From Candidatus Woesearchaeota archaeon (lineage in GTDB: Archaea > Nanobdellota > Nanobdellia > Woesearchaeales > UBA9642), in contig JAWABG010000002.1 in NCBI GenBank assembly GCA_038884715.1, positions 10,275 to 74,274 on the forward strand: a stretch of DNA of 64,000 bases. Direction: 5' to 3'. The translations under genes were made by a program, and so were the position numbers. The notes under the pieces are model-generated. The model saw only the letters and a program-made list of their open reading frames with translations, was not told where the DNA came from and searched no databases. The stretch's first letter is position 1; each line of letters begins with the position of its first letter. This document shows positions 1,264 through 64,000 of the stretch, piece after piece.

Positions 1264-1267
1264 ATTC

Positions 1268-1500
1268 AAGTGTTAAGTTCAATTGTGTTTAATTTCTAAA
1301 TTACGAAAACGGGGAGAAGTTCGGTGCTTCGCACATATATACACTCGCCACGCTCGAATTGATTGTAACTTAAACACAACTCTGCGGACGCAGGTCTCTC
1401 ACACTTCATATGGAAAACGAACTTAATAGGAATTTAACAGTTCGCAGGGTCGGCTTCGCCTAAAACGCCAAGCGTTTTCTCACGCTCTCCCAAATTTATT
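1268..1500. ncRNA. GC-rich structured RNA locus, family and strand unassigned
   Basis: About 48% GC island in a roughly 25-30% GC background, with no ORF. A 15-bp interrupted helix pairs 1270-1284 with 1357-1377. Hairpins sit at 1291-1302, 1324-1335, 1382-1393, 1418-1444 and 1462-1478. GGGAGA (1312-1317) pairs with TCTCCC (1486-1491). On the + strand, GAAGUUCGGU (1316-1325) can pair with GUCGGCUUC (1449-1457) leaving one bulged U, which resembles RNase P helix P4. However C exceeds G on the + strand (49 vs 38 over 1311-1491), which favours a minus-strand RNA. Confidence 0.4.
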
Positions 1501-1615
1501 TTTTGATGTCGGAATTTTGTGGAATGCCTGAAAATTCCTCCGCTCTGAAAAATGTTTTTTCATAATTTTTTTTTTAATAAAAAACTATTTAAAATATGTC
1601 TAATCTTAACAAAAC

Positions 1616-3743: not shown

Positions 3744-4481
3744 ATGGACCTAAGAAAGATTGTTGTAATAATTATCATTGCTGTTCTTTTTTCTATTTTT
3801 ACAAATAGTTTTGCAGATGCTATGTTTAATCAGCCTCGGTATGAAGATATTTGTGGAACAAATTATTATAGAAAATATCCTTCCCCAATTTCAACTCCCG
3901 AGATTAATAATAATATTAATACTAATTGTAATACTAATACTAATTGTAATACTAATACTGCTTGTAATTCTACTATTATTTGCAATTGTAATTCTACCAT
4001 TGTTTGCAAATATATAGAACCCACACAAGAAGAAAAAAATAATTGTGAGGGGAGAGGTGACCTAATTCCAGAATATGACTTGAATGGGTGTATAACTAGT
4101 TATAGATGTGACATGTGTAATGTTTATTTTCAGGATGCACAAACAAAGTATAATTTTAAGATTTTTTTAGTTATGAGTGTACTCGGACTTATTGCAATAT
4201 CCTTAGGTATATACTTACCTGCGAAGACTAATCAATTACATGAACTAATTGGCACAGGATTTATGTTTGGAGGCCTAATCAGTATATTTGTTGGAACCGC
4301 AAGGTATTTTACAGATTTAGCTAAGGTATTAAAGCCGGTTGTAATTTTTATTGAACTGCTTCTAGTTATATGGATTGTATACAAAAAATTAAGTGATAAT
4401 GGGAATTTAAATTATAACGGAATTACAATTCTTAAAAAACAGCCTAAAACAGATATAAAAAAGAAGAATAATAATATCTGA
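3744..4481 (+). CDS. Cys-rich membrane protein with an NTN(TN)C repeat
   Basis: Signal/TM helix, then the repeat NTNCNTNTNCNTNTACNSTIICNCNSTIVC, more Cys, and three C-terminal TM helices. I prefer the ATG at 3744 to the TTG at 3708 used in the ORF track. Confidence 0.5.
   Translation: MDLRKIVVIIIIAVLFSIFTNSFADAMFNQPRYEDICGTNYYRKYPSPISTPEINNNINTNCNTNTNCNTNTACNSTIICNCNSTIVCKYIEPTQEEKNNCEGRGDLIPEYDLNGCITSYRCDMCNVYFQDAQTKYNFKIFLVMSVLGLIAISLGIYLPAKTNQLHELIGTGFMFGGLISIFVGTARYFTDLAKVLKPVVIFIELLLVIWIVYKKLSDNGNLNYNGITILKKQPKTDIKKKNNNI
3918..4007 (+). repeat. In-frame imperfect tandem repeat of about 18 bp, coding
   Basis: aatactaattgt / aatactaatactaattgt / aatactaatactgcttgt / aattctactattatttgc / aattgt / aattctaccattgtttgc. 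Confidence 0.7.
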
Positions 4482-4637
4482 ATTAATTATTCTTGTGAAA
4501 GTTAGTATCATTATAGTAGTGACATTCACAAGTTTTATAAATTATAACATATATCTAATTGATTGAAATTGATGAAATCATTTTTTTAATTAGAAAAGGT
4601 AAAATAAACCTTAAGATGAAAATGATTAAAGATAAAA

Positions 4638-5006
4638 ATGAATCTTAAAGATAAACTAAAAAATGTAGTATATGTCGGATTAGCAGCATTAGCAATTAAT
4701 TATATTTCTTGCGATAATTCTAATATCTTTTTTAATCAGAAGTCAAAAGGCATTCCTATTAGCGAATTTCAAAGTAATTTGATTTATAACGATGAAGACA
4801 CGTTTTTTCAAAGTAAAAATTTAAAAAAAGAAAACTTTCAATTTTTATACGTGCAGTTCTACAGTAACAATTATAAAATACCTGAGAATGCAGTTGCTAT
4901 TATCAACTTTAAACCCAGCAGATACGAGAATATCAATGGAAAAAAATATTTATTATATCCTGAAGGAGCAATTGTAATACCAAAAAATAATAAGTTTATG
5001 AATTAA
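4638..5006 (+). CDS. Small secreted or lipoprotein-like hypothetical protein
   Basis: N-terminal hydrophobic segment ending in a lipobox-like ISC (LAALAINYISCDNS). Confidence 0.35.
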   Translation: MNLKDKLKNVVYVGLAALAINYISCDNSNIFFNQKSKGIPISEFQSNLIYNDEDTFFQSKNLKKENFQFLYVQFYSNNYKIPENAVAIINFKPSRYENINGKKYLLYPEGAIVIPKNNKFMN

Positions 5007-5076: not shown

Positions 5077-6042
5077 TCATTTTTTAACACTCGCCCATAT
5101 TAATGGCAAAGCGATTGTTATATCACAAATAACATTCACAAAATTGCCTTTTGGATTCATCTTACCCCAGCTGATTCCTTCTTTTAATTCTGCGCCGCTA
5201 CTTCCTCCTGGCTCTGGTCTGTCCATTGTAATCTGAATTCCATAATCCGCACCCCTCGGAGAAAACTGCATTGCTTGCTGAATATAATTTTTAGGAACTC
5301 CTCCTCCAAGGTAAATAACTCCTGCTTTTTTTGTCGTCCATGCTATGTCAAGTATTTCTTTCATGTCTTCAAATACCTTTACATTACATTTTTTTCCTTT
5401 TGCAATATTTCCCCATACTATAAGGCCAATACCAGAATCACTTATTGCTGGGCAAAATAAAGGGATTTTATTATTAAAACACGTTTTTAGTATGGATTTA
5501 TTTCCTTCTCTTTCTGGAACAAGCTCACCTATTTTCCATAAAAAATCCTTTATACTTTCAATATTTGATAGCAACTCATAATTTTTCTTAAAAAAATCTT
5601 CCATGGTTTCGTACACTTTATTTGGCATATAAGAATCATAAATTCTATCAAATCCTTTTTTGTTGAGTTCTTCATCATCTGCATAACTATTACCCTGAAA
5701 ATGATTAAATCCAAGAGCTTCGACTAAATCATGAGTTAACGTTGCACCAGTTGTTACAATTACATCAACATACGCTGATTCAAGCATATCTATGATAATA
5801 TTTTTCATTCCTCCAGGTACAAGTGCGCCTGCAACTCCCAGAAAAACTTTACAATCCTTATCAGAATTCATCATCTGCAGAATTGTTGAGGCCTTGGCAA
5901 TTTTTCCTGCACCCATAACCCCACTGTTTGACATTTCTTTTACTAATTCAGAGCAGGACATATTTTCTTTGATGTTAATTTGACTAACCTTGGCTAATTT
6001 CATTAGTAAAAGAAGAGTTGATTTATTTATAAATTTGTTCAA
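5077..6042 (-). CDS. dys: Deoxyhypusine synthase
   Basis: The motifs GGGVPKNYIQQ, ITMDRPEPGGSSGA and EGISWGK are characteristic of DHS. The start is uncertain: TTG at 6042, with an alternative ATG at 6003. Confidence 0.85.
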   Translation of the reverse strand: MNKFINKSTLLLLMKLAKVSQINIKENMSCSELVKEMSNSGVMGAGKIAKASTILQMMNSDKDCKVFLGVAGALVPGGMKNIIIDMLESAYVDVIVTTGATLTHDLVEALGFNHFQGNSYADDEELNKKGFDRIYDSYMPNKVYETMEDFFKKNYELLSNIESIKDFLWKIGELVPEREGNKSILKTCFNNKIPLFCPAISDSGIGLIVWGNIAKGKKCNVKVFEDMKEILDIAWTTKKAGVIYLGGGVPKNYIQQAMQFSPRGADYGIQITMDRPEPGGSSGAELKEGISWGKMNPKGNFVNVICDITIALPLIWASVKK

Positions 6043-11887: not shown

Positions 11888-13702
11888 ATGATAGATTATA
11901 CAACCATCGGGTTAAAGTGCGGACTTGAAATTCACCAGCAACTAAACACAAAAAAACTTTTTTGTAACTGTAATTCTGTTATTGTTGAGGAACCACCTGA
12001 TTTTTCTATAAGGAGAAGGCTTAGGGCAGTTGCTGGTGAGACTGGCGAAATAGACGTGGCTGCTATTCATGAGATGTTAAAAGATAAGTATATTATATAC
12101 GAGGGATATTATAATAATACTTGTCTTGTTGAACTTGATGAAGAACCACCACATAATATGAATTCTAATGCCTTTTATGCTTGCTTACAAATGGCAAAGA
12201 TTCTTAATGCAAAGATAAATGATTATATTCACGTCATGAGAAAAACAGTAGTTGATGGTTCTAATACTTCAGGATTTCAACGAACTGCATTAGTTGCAGT
12301 AAATGGTTTTTTAGAACTGAACAATAAAAAAATTCAAATTCCTACATTATGTCTTGAAGAAGATGCCGCAAGAATTATCAGTGCAGAAAAGGAATTTACA
12401 GTTTACAGGTTAGATAGACTTGGAATACCACTAATTGAGATTGCTACCGATGCTTCAATATCAAGTCCTGAAGAATGCAAGGAGGTTGCTGCTTATATAG
12501 GAATGTTGCTCAGAAGCACCGGTAAGGTCAGGAGGGGTATTGGAACAATAAGACAAGATGTTAATATCTCGATAAAAGAAGGGAACAGAGTTGAAATTAA
12601 AGGAGCACAGGATTTAAGATTGCTACCCAAAATTGTTGAATACGAGGTTTTAAGACAAAAAAATCTGATTGAATTGAAGCAATTATTACTTGATAAAAAA
12701 ATAAAATTTAATAAAAAAGATATTAAAATTTTTGATTTAACTAAGATATTTGATAAAACCAATTGTAAGATAATTCAACAAAAAAAATCTGTTTTTGGAA
12801 TAAAAATTAAAGATTTTAAAGGTTTATTTGGAAGAGAAACGCAACCAGGAAGGCGAGTGGGTTCAGAATTAAGTGATTATGGAAAAACTAGGCGTATTAA
12901 AGGATTATTTCACAGCGATGAGCAACTTTCTAAATATAATATTTCTATGGATGAAGTTAACAAGATTGAAGAATCTTTGAAAATTAATAAAAACGATGCT
13001 TTTATTTTAATTGCTGAGGAAAAAGATATTGCTGAAAAGGCATTCGATGTAATCTTGGATAGAATTTCTCACTTATTCGTGGGTGTGCCGAAAGAAGTAA
13101 GAAATGCAAATGATGATGGCACAAGCAGTTTTCTTAGACCAATGCCCGGAAGCTCAAGAATGTATCCAGAAACGGATATTTATCCCATTACTCCAGATCT
13201 ACAAAATATAGAACTACCTGAGTTGATTTCAGATAAAATATTGCGAATGGAAAAAAATTATAAAATTAGTAAGGAACTTGCAACAATTATTGTGAAGGAA
13301 GGAATAGAAATTGAACGATACATTCAAAAATATAAAAATATCAAGCCAACTTTTATTGCTGAGTTTTTTTATTCTATGCCTATTGAGTTTAAGAAGAGAT
13401 ACAACATAGATTATGACCCGGAAAATTTTGCAGAGGAATTGTTTGCCAAAATAAACAACAACGAAATTTCTTATTCTGCTGTAGAAGAAATAATTGTAAA
13501 AAAAGCAAAAGGAGAAATAATAAATTTTTCTGATTATTCAACAATTGATGAAAAAATATTGGAGACTAAAATAATGGATATTATTGATAAAAATAAAAAT
13601 GCTTCAATGAACGCATTAATGGGTATTGCAATGAAAGAACTTAAAGGAAAAACAGAAGGAAAAAAAATTATGCAATTATTAAAAAAATTTTTAATAAAAT
13701 GA
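11888..13702 (+). CDS. gatE: Glu-tRNA(Gln) amidotransferase subunit E
   Basis: N-terminus GLKCGLEIHQQL and a GatB/E-type core. The start is 1 nt after the gatD stop. Confidence 0.85.
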   Translation: MIDYTTIGLKCGLEIHQQLNTKKLFCNCNSVIVEEPPDFSIRRRLRAVAGETGEIDVAAIHEMLKDKYIIYEGYYNNTCLVELDEEPPHNMNSNAFYACLQMAKILNAKINDYIHVMRKTVVDGSNTSGFQRTALVAVNGFLELNNKKIQIPTLCLEEDAARIISAEKEFTVYRLDRLGIPLIEIATDASISSPEECKEVAAYIGMLLRSTGKVRRGIGTIRQDVNISIKEGNRVEIKGAQDLRLLPKIVEYEVLRQKNLIELKQLLLDKKIKFNKKDIKIFDLTKIFDKTNCKIIQQKKSVFGIKIKDFKGLFGRETQPGRRVGSELSDYGKTRRIKGLFHSDEQLSKYNISMDEVNKIEESLKINKNDAFILIAEEKDIAEKAFDVILDRISHLFVGVPKEVRNANDDGTSSFLRPMPGSSRMYPETDIYPITPDLQNIELPELISDKILRMEKNYKISKELATIIVKEGIEIERYIQKYKNIKPTFIAEFFYSMPIEFKKRYNIDYDPENFAEELFAKINNNEISYSAVEEIIVKKAKGEIINFSDYSTIDEKILETKIMDIIDKNKNASMNALMGIAMKELKGKTEGKKIMQLLKKFLIK

Positions 13703-14229
13703 GAATAAAAAAAACTGGCAAAAACCAACCAAAAGTATTAAATGAAGAATCCCAAAAAGAAAAAATTCCAATTTTTGGTTTTATTGGTTTTATTGATATT
13801 TTCCTACTTTTATGTGGCTCCCTAACAGTAATATTTGGAATAATTAACCAGTTTCAGCAGTCTGCACTTTTTCTTGTAATTGGGCTGTTGTTTTATTTTG
13901 CTAGAAAAAAACTTGAAAAGATTTATGTCCAAGAGGCAATGATAAACATTGAAACAGTTTCAAAATTTTTATGCCTTGGTCTGGGTCCTTTATTTCTTAT
14001 TTTTGCAAAAATTATATCTTTATCACCAGACTCAGTTTTTATATTTATTCCGATAATGGTTGCTTTTACCGGTTCTGCAATAAATGCTTCAAAGAAAAAA
14101 GCCAAGATAAATCTCGCGGTTTACGCGATCCTGTTATTGTTGATATTTATATTCTTAAATTATAGCATAATTAATGAGGTTTTTGCATCATTATTATTGT
14201 TTATTTTAGGAGTAATTCTATTTTTATAA
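13699..14229 (+). CDS. Polytopic membrane protein, function unknown
   Basis: Four to five hydrophobic helices. ATGA start/stop overlap with gatE. Confidence 0.45.
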   Translation: MRIKKTGKNQPKVLNEESQKEKIPIFGFIGFIDIFLLLCGSLTVIFGIINQFQQSALFLVIGLLFYFARKKLEKIYVQEAMINIETVSKFLCLGLGPLFLIFAKIISLSPDSVFIFIPIMVAFTGSAINASKKKAKINLAVYAILLLLIFIFLNYSIINEVFASLLLFILGVILFL

Positions 14230-14428
14230 ATAAGTATTTTTTTAAAATAATATTAGAAAGTAATCTAAATAAACTAAATATGATTAACTTTGATCTATGT
14301 TCGGGATTTAAGATTCATTTTTTCCAGATAGCAAAATTCTTGATAGGATGGGACGTTGAGATATGTTCAATGGAAAAGAAGTGATTATTGTAAATCAAAT
14401 TCAGAATTCTATACTTAAATTACTTAAA

Positions 14429-15568
14429 TTAGCCGTATTTTTTCTTAAGCTCCAACCATACAGAACACCAAAGCAATGAATCATCACAAATATAGAACAA
14501 CGATTCAAATGGCTGACCGTCGCTTGTAAAGACCTCAAGGAAGTTCTGATGTTTAAGAATCATCTCCTCATATTTATTTAAATATTCTTTCACTAACTCA
14601 GTTTTTTTGTATTTATCTAGGACTTTAAGATAGCACATGCCAAGATTCAACCAACTTGTTGTTCTTTCATATTCCGGAGCAAAAAATGTTAAAAGCAATG
14701 ATTCTTTCTCTGGTTTTTGTTTTCTATACTTTAATGGATAAGGATTATCAAAGCCTTCATCACGAATTATTTTATTTATTCTATCAAGAAATTCTTCATC
14801 ATCAATAATTCCTGAATAAAATGGGAATATATTTGCGTCAGAACAGAAATGCTTACTGCCTGAAAGATCATCAAGAAAATACCCAAAATTCCAGTATTTA
14901 GATAAAAGAATTTTTTTAAAATCAATATTGTTCAAAGGATTTTCAAACAAAAAATGTAGTTCTGAGTTAATTCTTTCAATAGTTTGGCTTAGCATAGCAA
15001 CCATACACGTATCATAGCATGACCTTTTTCTAATTGCATGATCATTCATTGCTAAAAAATGTCGATCCTTAATTAAAGAATCCTTGCTTTTATGATCAAT
15101 AACTTCCATATAAAACCTCAAAATTTCTTTTTGTAAAAAATCTTCATATTTTTTTATTAGACCATTATCCTTAAGAAGGTAAAGTGATCTGAAAATAAAG
15201 GCAACAGCATCTGGACTGTAAACATTTGGAATGTTTAACGGTTTACCTTGAGGATTAATTGTTTGTTTTATTCCACTTCTAAATCCCTTTGTATAAATAT
15301 TTAGTGCATAATTTAGTGTATCTTTCACTTCTCTTTCAAAGCCAAGATTAATCAATGATTCAGTACAAAATCCAAAATCTCGAGCAAAGAATTCACAAAA
15401 ATTACTCTTGCTTACCATAAAATAATTATTTTTTTTATTAAAACAATCATATATTATTTGTTCGCAAATCTCCTCTGCATTTCCAATATATTGTGGAAAT
15501 CCTTTTTTTCTAATTCGTCGTGCTCTTTTATAAAAACGCAAACCCTCTTTTAAAAAACTTAAAATCAT
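14429..15568 (-). CDS. Hypothetical protein, possibly an (alpha/alpha)6-barrel glycoside-hydrolase-like enzyme
   Basis: FFARDFGFCTESLINLGF resembles the W/F-x-RD...L..LG motif of six-hairpin glycosidases. This is weak evidence. Confidence 0.3.
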   Translation of the reverse strand: MILSFLKEGLRFYKRARRIRKKGFPQYIGNAEEICEQIIYDCFNKKNNYFMVSKSNFCEFFARDFGFCTESLINLGFEREVKDTLNYALNIYTKGFRSGIKQTINPQGKPLNIPNVYSPDAVAFIFRSLYLLKDNGLIKKYEDFLQKEILRFYMEVIDHKSKDSLIKDRHFLAMNDHAIRKRSCYDTCMVAMLSQTIERINSELHFLFENPLNNIDFKKILLSKYWNFGYFLDDLSGSKHFCSDANIFPFYSGIIDDEEFLDRINKIIRDEGFDNPYPLKYRKQKPEKESLLLTFFAPEYERTTSWLNLGMCYLKVLDKYKKTELVKEYLNKYEEMILKHQNFLEVFTSDGQPFESLFYICDDSLLWCSVWLELKKKYG

Positions 15569-15742
15569 ACTATAAAATATATTTATTTGATTGTTTTAAT
15601 ATTTTGTTGTTATTTAATATTTTAATATTTTTTATTAATTTTGTTCTGAAATGTTTTTTAGTGTTGATAAGAAAGGAGTATCACACTTAATTTCATAACT
15701 ATTGATAATCTCGTTAAATAATCTCTATTATTACTTTCAATA

Positions 15743-16870
15743 TTAATAATTCTTTTTTTCAGTTTTATTCTTTTGTGGCCTTATTTCAACATAATCTGGC
15801 CTTATATATTTTTTTACCTTTACTTTAATTTGCTTTCCATTAACATCCACTCTTATGTCTTCATATCCTGCGGCTTTTTTCAATGCGTTTCCAATATTCA
15901 ATCCATAATAGCTTAATACACCCAGACCAATACCAACTATAATAAGATCTCTGGCTCTAACCATTAATGATAGAGCAATAGCTGAGCTTTGTTTGACACC
16001 AAAAATTGCAAATGCACCTATCTGACCAGCTTCCATTGTTCCAAGAGCCATCGGAACGGGCGTAAGCATAGCAACACCGACAAATGAAACTATAAGAAAT
16101 ATTTTATCTATACCTATCTGAATTCCTAAAATCTGTGCAAGAAACTGATATTCAAAATACATGCCAATCCAGCTTAATATACTCAGTATTATTGTAAAAA
16201 TAAAAAACATTTTTTTATGCTTATAAAAGTTCACTAAAAGATCTTCAAAATATTTAATGTTTTGCTCATATTTCTTAAGAAAAAAAACCTTATTTAATTT
16301 CATTATCCTGAAAAGATGACTGAAAAAATATTCTGCCCTAAACAGTTTATAACAAAAATAGCAAATTGTTAAAGAAAATAATAACAATGCAATAATTAAA
16401 GGAATTTTTGCGTTCTTAGGTAGATTGACAGTCATTAAAACAACTATTCCACCCAAAACAAAGAAGATGCCTGAGCAGGTCGTCTCTATAACTTTATCTA
16501 TAGCAATTCCCGATAATGCATTTTTAAATTCTATTCTTTCTTTTTTCATAAGGGCTGCAGTAACCGGTTCTCCTCCAACTCTTGGGCCGGGAGTTAAATA
16601 ACTTACACCATATCCTGCTAATCTATAGCATGTGGCCTTCCAGAAACTAAGTCTAATTCCTTGATATTTCAATACAATCATCCATCGTATTGTTAGTGTA
16701 CTTTGAATAAATATTGACGCACAAAGGAATCCGATTATATATCCAAATTTGAGATTAGTGAATGATTCTAATATATCTTTAAATGAAAATGTGGATAAAA
16801 TTGATATAAATGCCACTATTCCAATGATTATGGAAAAAATAATAAGTATTTTCTTTATTTTTTCATTCAT
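15743..16870 (-). CDS. Flippase-like / lysyl-PG-synthase-TM (UPF0104) family membrane protein
   Basis: About eight TM helices with the typical N-terminus (KKILIIFSIIIGIVAFISIL...) and a basic C-terminal tail. Confidence 0.45.
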   Translation of the reverse strand: MNEKIKKILIIFSIIIGIVAFISILSTFSFKDILESFTNLKFGYIIGFLCASIFIQSTLTIRWMIVLKYQGIRLSFWKATCYRLAGYGVSYLTPGPRVGGEPVTAALMKKERIEFKNALSGIAIDKVIETTCSGIFFVLGGIVVLMTVNLPKNAKIPLIIALLLFSLTICYFCYKLFRAEYFFSHLFRIMKLNKVFFLKKYEQNIKYFEDLLVNFYKHKKMFFIFTIILSILSWIGMYFEYQFLAQILGIQIGIDKIFLIVSFVGVAMLTPVPMALGTMEAGQIGAFAIFGVKQSSAIALSLMVRARDLIIVGIGLGVLSYYGLNIGNALKKAAGYEDIRVDVNGKQIKVKVKKYIRPDYVEIRPQKNKTEKKNY

Positions 16871-17013
16871 TTTTATAATACTTTTTTATAATTTTTTAAC
16901 TTTTTTGTAGTATTTTTTTTGTAATATTATTATTTTATAATATTATTTTACATTTTATATTATATTTTTTATTTTTTTATCGTACTTTTATAATAATAAC
17001 GAGCCTGCGAGGA

Positions 17014-17048
17014 GTTTCAGAGTAGTGCGATTAAACGCAAAAACCCGC
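17014..17048 (-). other. tRNA intron 3, in the T-loop (59/60), 35 nt
   Basis: T-stem, then a perfect 4-bp central helix UUCA/UGAA, with 3-nt bulges AA|G and AC|U. Splicing restores UUCAAAU. Confidence 0.75.
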
Positions 17049-17070
17049 TTTGAACCCCGGACCTACTGCT

Positions 17071-17082
17071 TTCTTCATAGCA
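17071..17082 (-). other. tRNA intron 2, canonical 37/38 position, 12 nt (ugcuaugaagaa)
   Basis: Anticodon stem, then central helix CUCC/GAAG (3 of 4 pairs), with 3-nt bulges UA|U and AA|A. Confidence 0.7.
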
Positions 17083-17101
17083 TAGGAGGCAATCGCGCTA
17101 T

Positions 17102-17243
17102 GTGCCCCCGCCTAAGTCGTTTTTTAGGACTCCTATTAGTTTTTTCAATTGATGAAGCTTTACTTTTGGTGATTTGTGCTTTTTAGCTAAACAAGGAAAT
17201 TGTTAATTTCTGCACGGCTTTTTTTAAATTCTTTAAAAGGCGT
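17102..17243 (-). other. tRNA intron 1, in the D-loop after G19, about 142 nt (boundary +/-2 nt)
   Basis: Relaxed bulge-helix-bulge motif: central helix GCCU/GGGC, 5' bulge GG|A, intron helix CGCC/GGCG, 3' bulge AC|A. It contains internal hairpins (GAAAUU-AAC-AAUUUC and CCUAA...UUAGG). Confidence 0.7.
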
Positions 17244-17285
17244 CCAGGCTGCGCTACAGGCTCGTATACATAATGAAATATATGC

Positions 17286-17295
17286 TATTTTTAAA
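17286..17295 (-). promoter_or_regulatory. TATA box (tttaaaaata) for the tRNA gene
   Basis: Centred about 27 nt upstream of tRNA position +1 (17263), the standard archaeal spacing. Confidence 0.5.
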
Positions 17296-17340
17296 GGTTT
17301 AGTTTAATGGTAAATAATTTAAATTCATCTGTTCTTAAAA

Positions 17341-18387
17341 ATGTTTATGTATAAAATAAAGACAATTCCTGAAGATTTCTTGGTTAAAGAATTAAAAAAT
17401 ATTGTTTTTAGTAAAACTAAGAATAAAGAAAACCCATTTACTATTTTTTTACTTAAAAAGAAAAATTTGTCCACAGAAGAAGCAGTTTTATTAATATCCA
17501 AAAATTTGGTAATTAAAAGAAAATACATTGGTTATGCAGGAATTAAAGATAAGCGGGCCATAACAAAACAATTTATATCTGTTTTTAAGTATGATTCTGA
17601 AAAAATAAAAAATCTTAATATTCCTAATATACATTTGAAATTAGTCGGTTACTTAAATAAGCCAATTTCTATCGGTGATTTAAAAGGGAACAGCTTTCAC
17701 ATTGTTGTAAGGAATCTGATTATGTCCGATATAAAAAAATTCAAATCAAATTATAAAAAACTCAAAAGCAATAAATATTTTCTGCCGAATTATTTTGATG
17801 AGCAAAGATTCTCAAGAAAAAATGTTGAGATTGGAAAATTATTATTGAAAAAGAATTTCAAAAAAGCTGCAGAAACAATTTTAGAAAATGAGGTATCGCC
17901 TCAGCTAAAGATTACTGGAAATAATTACATAGATATAATAAAAAAGGTACCTAAAAAAATATTGTCTTTGTATATTCATTCATTTCAGTCATATGTATTC
18001 AATGAGACACTTAAAATTCTTCTCCATAATAAAAAAGGGAGAAAAATAAGTTATTCATACGGGGAATTTATATTTCCCGATAAAAAATTTCTTAATTTTA
18101 ATGTGCCAATTGTAGGATTCGGTACTGAACTTAAAGGGAAAATTAAAAACATTATCTTAAAAATATTAAAAGATGAAGAAGTTGAGTTAACTGATTTTAT
18201 AATTAGACAGCTTCCTGAGCAAACTGCATATGGTTTTAAAAGAAAGGCATTTTTTAAGGTAAAAAAATTAAGTTTTTCTGATATTTATGATGATGATTTA
18301 TATGAAAAAAAGAAAAAGATTAAAATAAATTTTATATTAGATAAGGGCAGCTACGCTACCATTGTAATAAAATATTTATTTTCATAG
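17341..18387 (+). CDS. truD: tRNA pseudouridine synthase TruD/Pus7 family
   Basis: Catalytic motif GYAGIKDKRAITKQ, plus the N-terminus PEDFLVKE. Confidence 0.8.
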   Translation: MFMYKIKTIPEDFLVKELKNIVFSKTKNKENPFTIFLLKKKNLSTEEAVLLISKNLVIKRKYIGYAGIKDKRAITKQFISVFKYDSEKIKNLNIPNIHLKLVGYLNKPISIGDLKGNSFHIVVRNLIMSDIKKFKSNYKKLKSNKYFLPNYFDEQRFSRKNVEIGKLLLKKNFKKAAETILENEVSPQLKITGNNYIDIIKKVPKKILSLYIHSFQSYVFNETLKILLHNKKGRKISYSYGEFIFPDKKFLNFNVPIVGFGTELKGKIKNIILKILKDEEVELTDFIIRQLPEQTAYGFKRKAFFKVKKLSFSDIYDDDLYEKKKKIKINFILDKGSYATIVIKYLFS

Positions 18388-18442
18388 AATCAAATTTTTA
18401 TAATGGACTGCAGTTGTTATGAATATAGAATTTTTTTACTGT

Positions 18443-19072
18443 TTAACCTGTGTTATCTATCTCATTGATTATTGATTTAAACACTTCGTCAATACTCTGT
18501 GTAGCGTCAATCTCAATTAAAAGACCCTCATTCCTATAATAATCTTTTAAAGGTGTTGTTTGTTCGTTATAAATCTTAAGCCTTTTTTTTATTGCCTCCG
18601 GTTTGTCATCTTCTCTTTGCAAAAGTTTACCTTCACATTTATCACAGATTCCTTTAACTTTTGGTTTTATTGATATTACGTTGTAACTTTCGCCGCATTT
18701 ACTACAAAGCCGTCTGCTAGCTATTCTATTTATTGCCTCCTCTTCAGATAATTCAAGATCAATAACAAAATCAATCTTTGCTATTTTATCTAAGAATTTT
18801 GCCTGCTCGATATTTCTTGGGTATCCATCTAAAATAAATCCATTTTTTGTTTTTTCAAGTCTCTCCTTAATAACTTGATTTGTGATATCGTCAGGTACAA
18901 GGTTTCCTGATTGCATTATTTCTTCTATTTCTTTACCAAGATCAGTTTTATTTTTTATATTTTCTCTAAAAATATCTCCAGTTGAAATATGATGTAAGCC
19001 ATACTTTTCCGCTATTCTAATGGCTTGTGTTCCTTTTCCTGATCCCTGCGGGCCTAAAATAATGATGTTCAT
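18443..19072 (-). CDS. adk: Adenylate kinase, long bacterial-type with a zinc lid
   Basis: P-loop ILGPQGSGKGTQA and lid CSKCGESY...CDKCEG. Confidence 0.9.
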   Translation of the reverse strand: MNIIILGPQGSGKGTQAIRIAEKYGLHHISTGDIFRENIKNKTDLGKEIEEIMQSGNLVPDDITNQVIKERLEKTKNGFILDGYPRNIEQAKFLDKIAKIDFVIDLELSEEEAINRIASRRLCSKCGESYNVISIKPKVKGICDKCEGKLLQREDDKPEAIKKRLKIYNEQTTPLKDYYRNEGLLIEIDATQSIDEVFKSIINEIDNTG

Positions 19073-39257: not shown

Positions 39258-39945
39258 ATTCCAGCTCACGTATAGCATCACTAGCAATCCATTTAGCTGT
39301 TTTGGTCTCCTGTTTCAAAATTCGGTGTGCACACTCAATGGCTTTTTTGTTCAGATTTTTATTTTTTTTTCCAATCTGGCGAAGAGCCCAATTAACTGCT
39401 TTTCTAACAAAATTTCTTTTATCATAAGAATATTTTTCTATCAATGGAAAAAACATATCAAATTTTTGATCTGACCAGTCTTTTCTGTGCCAAGCAACAC
39501 AAGCTATGAGTGCAAATCCCGCCCTTCTTATGAATTCCTTTTCATCTTTTACCCATTCAAAAATCTTTTTTTCTGCAAATTCAGTCTTATCAAACAAATT
39601 CATGCAGCACTGATCACACAAATCCCAAGAGTTGAACTCTATTACCCACTCATCCATTAATTTCTCTGTAATTTTTTTTGGGTCAGCAACCATACTCGCA
39701 AGAATTCTTGCTTCATGAATATTTGTTTTCCAGAGCTGAAGTGCAAGCACTTGCCTGTCAGGGTCTTTTATATGCCTTTTTGCAATAGCTCGCAAGACAG
39801 GAATTCTAACTCCAAGTGCATATTTTGAATTAATCCCAAACCGAGCCATTCCCTCTTTGTCTTTTGGATTAGACTTTTTTTTAGTTCTGAAATTATTTGG
39901 TTTAGTTTTTGATATGACATTTTTATTCCAATTTTGATATTGCAC
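39238..39945 (-). CDS. DNA alkylation repair (AlkD-like HEAT-repeat) protein, N-terminus possibly frameshifted at an A8 run
   Basis: NPKDKEGMARFGIN...LGVRIPVLRAIAK...IHEARILA fits AlkD-family repeats. In-frame GTG start at 39945. An alternative ATG at 39920 in another frame encodes MSYQKLNQIISELKK, an AlkD-like first helix. Confidence 0.65.
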   Translation of the reverse strand: MQYQNWNKNVISKTKPNNFRTKKKSNPKDKEGMARFGINSKYALGVRIPVLRAIAKRHIKDPDRQVLALQLWKTNIHEARILASMVADPKKITEKLMDEWVIEFNSWDLCDQCCMNLFDKTEFAEKKIFEWVKDEKEFIRRAGFALIACVAWHRKDWSDQKFDMFFPLIEKYSYDKRNFVRKAVNWALRQIGKKNKNLNKKAIECAHRILKQETKTAKWIASDAIRELESKKKIL

Positions 39946-40138
39946 CTTGTTTGCATGCTTCTATACAAGAAAAGCAATTAGTACATAATTTTTTATCATA
40001 AACAATATTTTTTTTTCTTTCCAATGCCCCTGTAGGACATACCTCAACACATCCATCACACTTGGAGTTACCGCATTTACAACCAGTGCATTTCCATTCT
40101 TTCCAACAACATTTTTTGTAATTAATTTTTATAGTCAT
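39923..40138 (-). CDS. Small 4Fe-4S dicluster ferredoxin-like protein
   Basis: Motifs CDGCVEVCP and CTNCFSCIEAC, plus extra N-terminal Cys. Confidence 0.7.
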   Translation of the reverse strand: MTIKINYKKCCWKEWKCTGCKCGNSKCDGCVEVCPTGALERKKNIVYDKKLCTNCFSCIEACKQGAISKLE

Positions 40139-40171
40139 AAGTTTTTATCTCCTATCCATCTTCACTCTTGT

Positions 40172-48231: not shown

Positions 48232-48257
48232 CCTGATTCCTCTTTTTAATCATTTTT

Positions 48258-48485
48258 TTATCTGGCACTTATAAGTGTGCTTGTTAGTTTGACACCTTTT
48301 ATTGACCTGATTTTTTCCATAACAAATCTTGCGAGATCCTCTGCATTTTCTATTTCAACTTTAATTATTATATCCCACTCTCCGAACAGGATATGCGCTT
48401 CTCTTACTTCCTTATTTTTTGTTATTGATTCTAATATCTTTTTCTCATTGGCATCTTCTAAAGTTATTAAGATATATGCAAGCAT
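48258..48485 (-). CDS. Stand-alone Lrp/AsnC ligand-binding (RAM) domain protein
   Basis: The 75-aa sequence AYILITLE...VREAHILFGEWDIIIKVE fits the AsnC_trans_reg pattern. Confidence 0.65.
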   Translation of the reverse strand: MLAYILITLEDANEKKILESITKNKEVREAHILFGEWDIIIKVEIENAEDLARFVMEKIRSIKGVKLTSTLISAR

Positions 48486-48665
48486 TATATCACCCTAACA
48501 ATTGTAATGGTTAGTTATTTTTAAAGCTTGTGATTGAAGCTTTTATATAGACTAAAATATTTTTAAGAACATTTTCAAACTTTCTTATGTATTAATTTTT
48601 TATTATTTATTTCTCTGAATATTTTTATAGTAGACGTATTTGTTGTGTGTTTTTTAGTAAATCTT

Positions 48666-49448: not shown

Positions 49449-49609
49449 AGGTTGAGAATAAATATTTTATTTATTTGATTTGTGGTTTTCTGGTGAACTT
49501 TAAAATATTTTTGATTTTTTTGACTTAATTTTCTCGATATGCGATTTTTTTTTCTTGATTGTGATTTATTGGAATTATTCTAAGAAGATTAGAAGAATTT
49601 TAAAAAAGA

Positions 49610-49685
49610 GCGGTGGGCCCAAGATGGCCTGATGAGTTGTTGGGGGATATCAGAAGAAAAGCCCATCCTGACCCACACCGCAACA
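49610..49685 (+). ncRNA. K-turn-containing small RNA (box C/D-type UGAUGA/CUGA pairing, with an alternative H/ACA-like reading and a 3' ACA)
   Basis: GC-rich island with G>C on the + strand. Terminal stem GCGGUG (49610-15) / CACCGC (49676-81). CUGAUGA lies at 49629-35 and CUGA at 49668-71, flanked by GG/CC, so a canonical C/D kink-turn can form. ACA at 49683-85. Two further hairpins (49682-49697 and 49720-49734) and a T-run end the island at about 49746. Confidence 0.5.
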
Positions 49686-49747
49686 TGAAGTCATGTTATG
49701 TGTTTGGTTATGTTTGGATTTCCGTGAATTACGGAGCATTATTTTTG

Positions 49748-63240: not shown

Positions 63241-63399
63241 ATATTGATTGTTTTAATTTATTAATTTAAAGTAGATCTATTTATTTATAATAAAAATTTT
63301 GTATTTAGAGATTATATTTAGAGAGATTATATTAATCAGAAAGTAAAGTGAGTATTACTTTACAAAAACTTTTTAAACTCACATCCTTAATTTTTATCT

Positions 63400-64000
63400 A
63401 TGTTTGGATTTAGAAAAAAATTTCGTGATATGAATAGAGTTGAGAAGATAATTAAGATTCTATTAAAATATGAGATGGGTTATTTCTTGCAAAGAATAAA
63501 CTTAAGTATAAACAAACAGGCTCAAAAAGATTTACAACCCGAAACTCTCAGAATGATTTTGCAAGAGTTGGGAGGAGGATTTATTAAGTTAGGTCAATTC
63601 TTAAGTTTAAGGCCTGATCTTATCCCACACAGATACTGCGAAGAATTAAGCAGACTTCAAGATGAAGTTAAGCCATTCAGTGCAGAAGAGGTAAAAAAAA
63701 CTATTGAGACAGATTTGAAAAAACCAATTAACAAAATATTTAGTTATTTTGATTTTAAACCAATTGCCGCGGCAAGCATAGGTCAAGTACATACAGGTTT
63801 CTTAAAAGGAAAAAAAATTGCTGTCAAGGTTCAAAGACCACACATAAAAGAGATAATGAAAACAGATATAGAAATACTGGAATATTTTACAGAATTATTA
63901 AATAACAAAGCGCACAAATTACCACTAAATCCAATAAAAATATTTGAGGAATTTAAGTTGTATACAGAACACGAATTAAATTATTTAAATGAAGCTACAA
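63400..64000 (+). CDS. ABC1/UbiB-family atypical kinase, 3' end cut by the window edge
   Basis: Not in the ORF track because no stop is reached. Translated by hand: MFGFRKKFR...LGGGFIKLGQFLSLRPDLIP...AAASIGQVHTGFLKGKKIAVKVQRP, matching ABC1 motifs. Confidence 0.75.
   Translation, partial: MFGFRKKFRDMNRVEKIIKILLKYEMGYFLQRINLSINKQAQKDLQPETLRMILQELGGGFIKLGQFLSLRPDLIPHRYCEELSRLQDEVKPFSAEEVKKTIETDLKKPINKIFSYFDFKPIAAASIGQVHTGFLKGKKIAVKVQRPHIKEIMKTDIEILEYFTELLNNKAHKLPLNPIKIFEEFKLYTEHELNYLNEAT

Follow-up and report, generated by a model that had tools for sequence, protein, structure and literature searches.

Introduction

Archaeal transfer RNA (tRNA) genes can be interrupted by up to three introns, for example in Pyrobaculum (PMC4390854, PMC8450103, PMC4033280), and the non-canonical sites on record include positions 20/21 and 59/60 (PMC4090602). 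Under the canonical bulge-helix-bulge (BHB) rule, 3-nt bulges flank a 4-bp helix, and each of the two strands is cut once, 2 nt into its bulge (PMC4090602). Multi-intron tRNAs have also been reported from Nanoarchaeum equitans and ARMAN-1/2 (PMC4033280; PMC3239211). Moreover, Kaneta et al. described more tRNA disruption in DPANN lineages possessing an L3-loop alpha4 EndA, based on a tRNA set that included one Woesearchaeota and one Pacearchaeota metagenome-assembled genome; incomplete tRNA sets were taken to point to undetected disrupted genes, and manual searches were called for (PMC5829648). The present work deals with a gene of this kind, an interrupted tRNA-Arg(CCU) gene at 17263..17000 on the minus strand of a 64,000-nucleotide stretch of DNA from a Candidatus Woesearchaeota archaeon (the whole stretch is referred to as the window).

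The locus is very probably a functional tRNA-Arg(CCU) gene with three BHB-type, protein-spliced introns at positions 19/20, 37/38 and 59/60. An earlier note, made from the sequence alone, had proposed such a three-intron gene here, and the proposal is borne out by an ARAGORN call on the spliced sequence together with orthologs carrying 0, 1 or 3 introns. No description of this gene, of any three-intron tRNA-Arg(CCU) or of a 0/1/3-intron ortholog series was found in the literature; the window gene adds to a class of genes that is already known and does not establish a new one. The genome had been called DPANN-like, which is correct: it belongs to the Woesearchaeota, and its TruD and LPG-synthase proteins each match an NCBI protein of Candidatus Woesearchaeota archaeon at 100% identity. 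The expectation that such a gene would be unusual in this superphylum is fair for the three-intron count and for the 142-nt D-loop intron, but multi-intron tRNAs of DPANN archaea have already been reported (PMC4033280, PMC5829648).

The predicted spliced product

On the minus strand, the locus reads GAGCCUGUAGCGCAGCCUGG, a 142-nt intron, AUAGCGCGAUUGCCUCCUA, a 12-nt intron, AGCAGUAGGUCCGGGGUUCAAA, a 35-nt intron and UCCUCGCAGGCUCG, the four exons being 20, 19, 22 and 14 nt long. The length balance given in the earlier note (75+142+12+35=264) holds, removal of the 142, 12 and 35 nt leaving 75 nt. The joined 75-nt RNA is called tRNA-Arg(cct) by ARAGORN, whose cloverleaf agrees with the claim that every arm is canonical once the three segments are taken out. 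The acceptor stem has 7 bp and is followed by a GCGC/GCGC D-stem, an AUUGC/GCAGU anticodon stem with a CUCCUAA loop, the variable loop AGGUC and the T-arm CGGGG-UUCAAAU-CCUCG. All expected conserved bases can be read from the spliced sequence, namely U8, A14, G18, G19, A21 and U33 as well as G53, U54, U55, C56, A58 and C61, and both A20 and C35 are present. In E. coli, A20 and C35 are established arginine identity elements, and A20 is invariant across the mature tRNA-Arg(CCU) of the orthologs. No CCA is encoded at the 3' end.

AGG, the codon that the anticodon would read, is the second commonest arginine codon in the long open reading frames (ORFs) of the window, at 8.6 per 1000 codons and 23% of the arginine codons. 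Other anticodons obtained by shifting intron 2, namely CCA (Trp) and CGA (Ser), were considered and rejected, as every ortholog has CUCCUAA and the variable loop is short.

Syntenic orthologs with zero, one or three introns

Orthologous loci were recovered by synteny through TruD and LPG-synthase homologs on other Woesearchaeota contigs. The order LPG_synthase_TM (-), tRNA (-), TruD (+) and ADK is kept in the loci L005, L010, L011, L013, L014, L015 and L018, and a minus-strand tRNA-Arg(CCU) fills the gap between LPG-synthase and TruD on every contig compared. The most informative of them is L011, in which 5917..5843 is an uninterrupted 75-nt tRNA-Arg(CCU) called by ARAGORN and scored at 65.5 bits by the Rfam tRNA model RF00005 (threshold 29). 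The window exons are collinear with it and join to the exact base (BLAST pieces 5917-5897, 5897-5879 and 5879-5857), exon 2 being contiguous with exons 1 and 3. The L011 copy is thus uninterrupted, syntenic and 70/75 identical to the spliced product, and therefore all three exon joins are fixed. It likewise fixes the mature loops as AGCCUGGAUA for the D-loop, CUCCUAA for the anticodon loop and UUCAAAU for the T-loop.

This series bears directly on the idea that the locus encodes a stable, unspliced 264-nt structured non-coding RNA, or that its tRNA likeness is a product of freely chosen deletions. The ends do pair as GAGCCUG/CAGGCUC, and six cut points offer many degrees of freedom. However, Rfam offers no family for it up to E = 10, and the largest segment folds no better than its shuffles (z = +0.97). 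Especially, the 'deleted' segments are exactly those that are absent or replaced in the orthologs, whereas the retained ones join without a gap when placed on an uninterrupted, high-scoring tRNA. An unspliced RNA or a chance resemblance is hardly conceivable on these grounds and is effectively refuted by the ortholog series.

Three introns at the positions of the window gene are found in L005 and in L020, the latter from a separate assembly and a second sequencing run. Their exons are 75/75 identical to those of the window, exon 1 being also identical in L011, and their introns measure 44, 12 and 37 nt and are largely unalignable with those of the window except at the ends. The neighbouring proteins of the window and L005 are only 49% (TruD) and 78% (LPG synthase) identical. 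Such a pattern indicates strong purifying selection that would act on the exons only, with introns diverging freely. In a second clade, comprising L010, L013, L014, L015-17 and L018, only the T-loop intron is present, at the same position and with a length of 42 to 121 nt; in most of these genes Rfam picks up just the 5' 59 nt of the tRNA. Across four distinct mature sequences, 21/21 cloverleaf pairs are standard and 5 pairs are changed on both sides, and no shuffle or slid register matches the cloverleaf pairing of the orthologs. The exon/intron architecture, this conservation pattern and the junction structures are matters of direct observation.

A decaying pseudogene would offer another explanation, in which the insertions are never removed and AGG is read by an intact CCU copy elsewhere or by tRNA-Arg(UCU) through wobble. 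The relaxed splice motifs would suit it, as would the failure of every scanner to call the gene. Against this stand exons that are kept 75/75 beside a TruD at 49% identity while the introns diverged in sequence and length, compensatory changes in the junction helices, and a conserved promoter element. Furthermore, the gene is syntenic and apparently the only copy at a place where relatives hold an intact or single-intron tRNA-Arg(CCU). Perfectly kept exons beside freely diverging introns therefore argue for a functional, spliced gene, and a pseudogene is considered very unlikely.

Splice-site motifs

Relaxed BHB forms can be modelled at all three introns, each with one clean bulge-helix and one relaxed side. 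Such forms are on record for non-canonical archaeal introns, recognised types being hBH, HBh' and BHL. The earlier note had described each junction as lying 2 nt into a bulge that flanks a 4-bp helix. This stands for three of the six junctions, where clean 3-nt bulges occur (5' of intron 1, with the junction moved by one base, and 3' of introns 2 and 3), but of the other three, one falls within a 5x1 internal loop, one within an 8-nt loop and one within a 4-nt bulge.

At intron 1, beyond the D-stem and A14, the bases G15-U17a (GCCU) pair with GGGC close to the 3' end of the intron; a 3-nt bulge GG|A and a second helix, CGCC/GGCG, follow. L005 has CAUUAU/AUAAUG in place of this second helix, a full compensatory replacement, and there the unconstrained minimum-energy fold coincides with the model. 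The most likely placement of this intron would be at 19/20, GG|A...CAC|AUA, which is one base 5' of the earlier GGA|C...CACA|UA and leaves the product unchanged. The junction was moved because L005 has a G after CCUGG, while the other orthologs keep A20. Of the statement that the splicing rule applied to intron 1 yields A20, the presence of A20 and the mature sequence hold, but A20 comes from exon 2 and the junction is at 19/20. A three-intron gene in which intron 1 is instead cut at 20/20a, after A20 and ...CACA, would give the same mature sequence in the window, since an A flanks both ends, and its register is symmetric, with 3 nt after each helix. In L005, however, that register would produce the D-loop AGCCUGGGUA, whereas the GGAUA part is invariant in every other ortholog, the intronless one included; moreover, if the canonical rule is followed and the cut is placed behind the second base of the bulge, the junctions are GG|A and AC|AUA. 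The 20/20a register is therefore regarded as improbable, and the 19/20 placement is used throughout.

At intron 2, the bases C32-C35 (C32U33C34C35) pair with GAAG of the intron, and the 3' bulge is AA|A38 (AG|A38 in L005). The 5' site falls within an 8-nt loop, which corresponds to a bulge-helix-loop form. The counterpart of this intron in L005 is ATCTCTGAAGAG; GAAGA is shared and the 5' half is not conserved. As modelled, this motif is the least convincing of the three. Neither L011 nor the second clade has intron 1 or intron 2.

Intron 3 has the broadest comparative record, as an intron of 37 to 121 nt is present at 59/60 in every syntenic ortholog except L011. Here the T-stem is followed by a helix of U54-A57 (UUCA) with UGAA and by the 3' bulge AC|U60. 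The UUCA/UGAA helix had been noted as perfect; it is indeed so, and it covaries in the second clade, where it reads UUCG/UGAA or UUCG/CGAA, with position 57 changing through A-U, G-U and G-C. Additionally, the 3' bulge-helix lies within the unconstrained minimum-energy folds of L013, L014 and L018.

Intron interiors and intron variation

Within the introns, only the junction helices and bulges are conserved. The interior of the 142-nt intron 1 folds no better than its shuffles, as given above; that of the 44-nt intron 1 in L005 is unrelated to it, and only the ends are conserved. The 142-nt intron has no Rfam match (E = 10) and no second copy in the window or in the fetched loci. On this comparison, its interior is treated as probable unconstrained filler between two short conserved ends.

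Other identities for the introns were considered and rejected. Self-splicing group I and group II introns possess a catalytic core of conserved helices and typically measure 200 nt or more; the segments here are 142, 12 and 35 nt long, show no Rfam match at E = 10 and, in the case of intron 1, have no fold beyond shuffles. C/D box small RNAs (sRNAs) carry a C box RUGAUGA and a D box CUGA, and one is intron-encoded in haloarchaeal tRNA-Trp. The sense strand of intron 1 has neither UGAUGA nor CUGA, and in intron 3 CUGA is present and the C box is missing.

Variation in the T-loop intron was observed between two closely similar contigs. L013 and L014 are 99.1% identical over 4293 nt with an identical TruD protein, and 24 of their 38 differing positions fall in a 31-nt stretch (L013 4283-4313) within the T-loop intron. 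Their tRNA genes occupy 4381..4265 in L013 and 3071..2948 in L014, both on the minus strand, and the two T-loop introns have only the first 7 and the last ~6 bases in common. Alignment with L010, L015 and L018 suggests that both derive from a longer common intron that lost different segments, in one case between TTGAA repeats.

Proposed processing and points against it

The following processing route is conceivable. A TATA promoter some 30 nt upstream would drive transcription of a 264-nt precursor. EndA, the archaeal splicing endonuclease, would then cut every exon-intron junction, guided by a 4-bp helix and a 3-nt bulge on at least one side, and an RtcB-type ligase would join the exons. RNase P and RNase Z would trim the ends, CCA would be added post-transcriptionally, and the 75-nt product would read AGG codons. 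The promoter element AAACCTTTAAAAATA is a putative one, named from its position and conservation only. A 16-mer, AAACCTTTAAAAATAG, lies at equal upstream distance in the window and in L005, although the remaining spacer differs, and the second clade has TTAATAAA at a similar upstream distance.

Several observations weigh against a functional three-intron gene. The motifs are relaxed, and no intron forms a strict canonical BHB. For intron 1, the model in the window lies ~1 kcal/mol above the unconstrained minimum-energy fold, and the 3' site is located in ACAUA opposite A14, in a 5x1 internal loop. For intron 2, the helix has a C34-A mismatch that is present in both genomes, and the model reaches only -1.3 kcal/mol. 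For intron 3, the 5' bulge has 4 nt (AAGC) and is followed by GGGU/ACUC, and the model lies 1.1 (window) and 2.3 (L005) kcal/mol above the minimum. Furthermore, the terminator is weak because no run of five or more T follows the gene in the window; after the gene, TTTTTTT occurs in the second clade, and L005 has no long run. The three-intron form occurs in just two genomes. The 64-kb window yielded neither an EndA nor an RtcB gene; tblastn with an M. jannaschii EndA query gave nothing credible there. Transcription, splicing, the enzymes and the exact cleavage phosphates are inferred from the sequence, and a second, intact tRNA-Arg(CCU) may exist elsewhere in the genome.

The lineage is sparsely sampled, because the next best TruD to that of the window is only 49% identical. 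The JGI metagenome 3300075153 (contigs with P0003, P0123 and P0124) provides LPG-synthase homologs of 70% and 58% identity and a TruD homolog of 44%; judged by LPG-synthase homologs, it holds all the closest further relatives of the window lineage. Exact-pattern searches for the anticodon arm (GCGCGATTGCCTCCTA N0-30 AGCAGT) covered 185,579 species-representative genomes as well as JGI metagenomes and returned GC-rich bacterial chance matches only; exon 1 had no match among viral contigs.

Locus, detectability and neighbouring features

The gene stands out in composition, with a GC content of 43.6% for 17000..17263 vs 29.2% for the whole window. The exons (75 nt in total) have 61% GC and the introns (189 nt in total) 36.5%. 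Among the intergenic gaps of the window, the tRNA locus is the top GC peak, tied with 49449..49747 (0.62 per 40 nt). It sits in a 470-nt gap between the LPG-synthase-like gene on one side and TruD on the other, at a spacing of 77 nt from TruD, and no ORF of at least 60 aa overlaps 17000..17263. The coordinates are collected in Table 1.

Table 1. Coordinates in the window of the tRNA-Arg(CCU) gene parts, the putative promoter and the flanking genes.
Feature	Position	Strand	Length	Sequence	Remarks
LPG-synthase-like membrane protein gene	15743..16870	-			
Exon 4	17000..17013	-	14 nt	TCCTCGCAGGCTCG	U60, T-stem 3' strand, acceptor 3' strand, discriminator G73; identical in L005
Intron 3	17014..17048	-	35 nt	GCGGGTTTTTGCGTTTAATCGCACTACTCTGAAAC	T-loop, 59/60
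Exon 3	17049..17070	-	22 nt	AGCAGTAGGTCCGGGGTTCAAA	A38, anticodon stem 3' strand, AGGUC, T-stem 5' strand, T-loop U54-A59; identical in L005
Intron 2	17071..17082	-	12 nt	TGCTATGAAGAA	canonical 37/38
Exon 2	17083..17101	-	19 nt	ATAGCGCGATTGCCTCCTA	A20 U20a A21, D-stem 3' strand, G26, anticodon stem 5' strand, C32 U33 CCU A37; identical in L005
Intron 1	17102..17243	-	142 nt		D-loop, G19/A20; AT-rich, 34.5% GC
Exon 1	17244..17263	-	20 nt	GAGCCTGTAGCGCAGCCTGG	acceptor 5' strand, U8 A9, D-stem 5' strand, D-loop up to G19; identical in L005/L020 and L011
Putative archaeal promoter (BRE + TATA box)	17286..17300	-		AAACCTTTAAAAATA	TATA part -32 to -23 from first tRNA base
TruD gene	17341..18387	+			

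The prediction that standard scanners would miss the gene held for ARAGORN and the Rfam tRNA model. ARAGORN, run with default settings and also with introns allowed on the unspliced 64-kb window, reports no tRNA at the locus or elsewhere, and the Rfam tRNA model finds no match on the unspliced window, at gathering thresholds or at E up to 10. With a lowered threshold, ARAGORN gives low-quality calls only across the window, mostly within coding regions, and no further hidden tRNA was identified among them. Apart from the tRNA-Arg(CCU) locus, no tRNA gene is thus detectable by ARAGORN or Rfam across window positions 1-64000.

The neighbourhood GatE ... LPG-synthase-like / tRNA-Arg(CCU) / TruD / adenylate kinase extends over 11888..19072 in the window and recurs in L005, L010, L011, L013 and L018. 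It is retained although the TruD proteins are just 42-49% identical, which makes the slot a handy anchor for finding the tRNA in new bins. L005 carries an extra ORF of 107 aa at 4330..4653 (+), between the tRNA promoter and TruD, with no Pfam hit and no counterpart in the window.

Other GC-rich intergenic spots of the window may also encode RNAs. The island at 49605-49690 (+), in the gap 49449..49747, reaches 62% GC per 40 nt and has paired ends GCGGUG/CACCGC, a C-box-like UGAUGA and a D-box-like CUGA. This island may encode a small non-coding RNA; Rfam gives no match for it up to E = 10, and the z-score of its fold is only -1.05. A second island at 1300-1500 (gap 1264..1615) reaches up to 57% GC, and its minus strand folds slightly better than shuffles (z = -1.82), and Rfam gives nothing credible for it; a structured RNA may be encoded there. 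Further GC-rich spots lie at 39850..40171, 48232..48665 and 63241..64000.

Significance and comparison with known systems

An essential-looking tRNA that is missed by both ARAGORN and Rfam has practical consequences, as such genes can make DPANN bins appear to be devoid of isoacceptors, which distorts inferences on completeness and decoding. The gene adds a Woesearchaeota example of the maximal three-intron form and implies a splicing endonuclease that would cope with relaxed motifs in the D-loop, the anticodon loop and the T-loop of one substrate. Moreover, the 0/1/3-intron series at one locus is a small, clean data set from which the order of intron gains and the requirements of the endonuclease could be worked out. 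The finding is useful for annotation and for the study of intron evolution, and would not surprise a specialist.

A bolder and rather doubtful proposition is that the tRNA-Arg(CCU) slot of this Woesearchaeota group is a live record of intron gain and turnover (0, 1 or 3 introns; 35 to 142 nt). If true, an active process of repeated insertion, deletion or exchange targeted to the splice motif, for instance through reverse reactions of endonuclease and ligase or through recombination, would be at work rather than ordinary relaxed-constraint indels. The locus would then be a natural system for the study of archaeal tRNA intron origin, and many 'missing' tRNAs of DPANN bins would be hidden multi-intron genes.

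Among the described systems, the three-intron tRNAs of hyperthermophilic crenarchaea share with the window gene the presence of three protein-spliced introns (the known maximum), the mixture of the canonical 37/38 site with non-canonical ones, the relaxed BHB motifs and the failure of simple scanners to find them. Unlike those genes, whose hosts possess an (alpha-beta)2 endonuclease, the window gene belongs to a mesophile-type, AT-rich DPANN archaeon, represents another isoacceptor and has a D-loop intron of 142 nt. Furthermore, intron families have been reported in Thermoproteales (PMC4090602), whereas no paralogous intron copies were seen in the 64 kb of the window. The disrupted tRNAs of Nanoarchaeum and ARMAN-1/2 resemble it in superphylum, in their multiple non-canonical introns and in the incompleteness of automatic prediction.

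A eukaryotic nuclear tRNA gene with one intron per arm in three arms has the same layout and BHB dependence. There, however, a eukaryotic endonuclease is involved and no evolutionary link exists, so that the likeness is an architectural analogy only. The tRNA-Thr(GGU) of Caldiarchaeum subterraneum (PMC3293823) is comparable in another respect, in that members of a population differ in intron content at one tRNA locus; here, the closely similar L013 and L014 differ mainly inside the T-loop intron. In Caldiarchaeum, a 1.8-kb recombinase-bearing element and a displaced tRNA fragment have been implicated (PMC3293823), whereas beside the tRNA-Arg(CCU) gene no mobile element or tRNA fragment is seen, and the variation resembles indels within a shared intron backbone.

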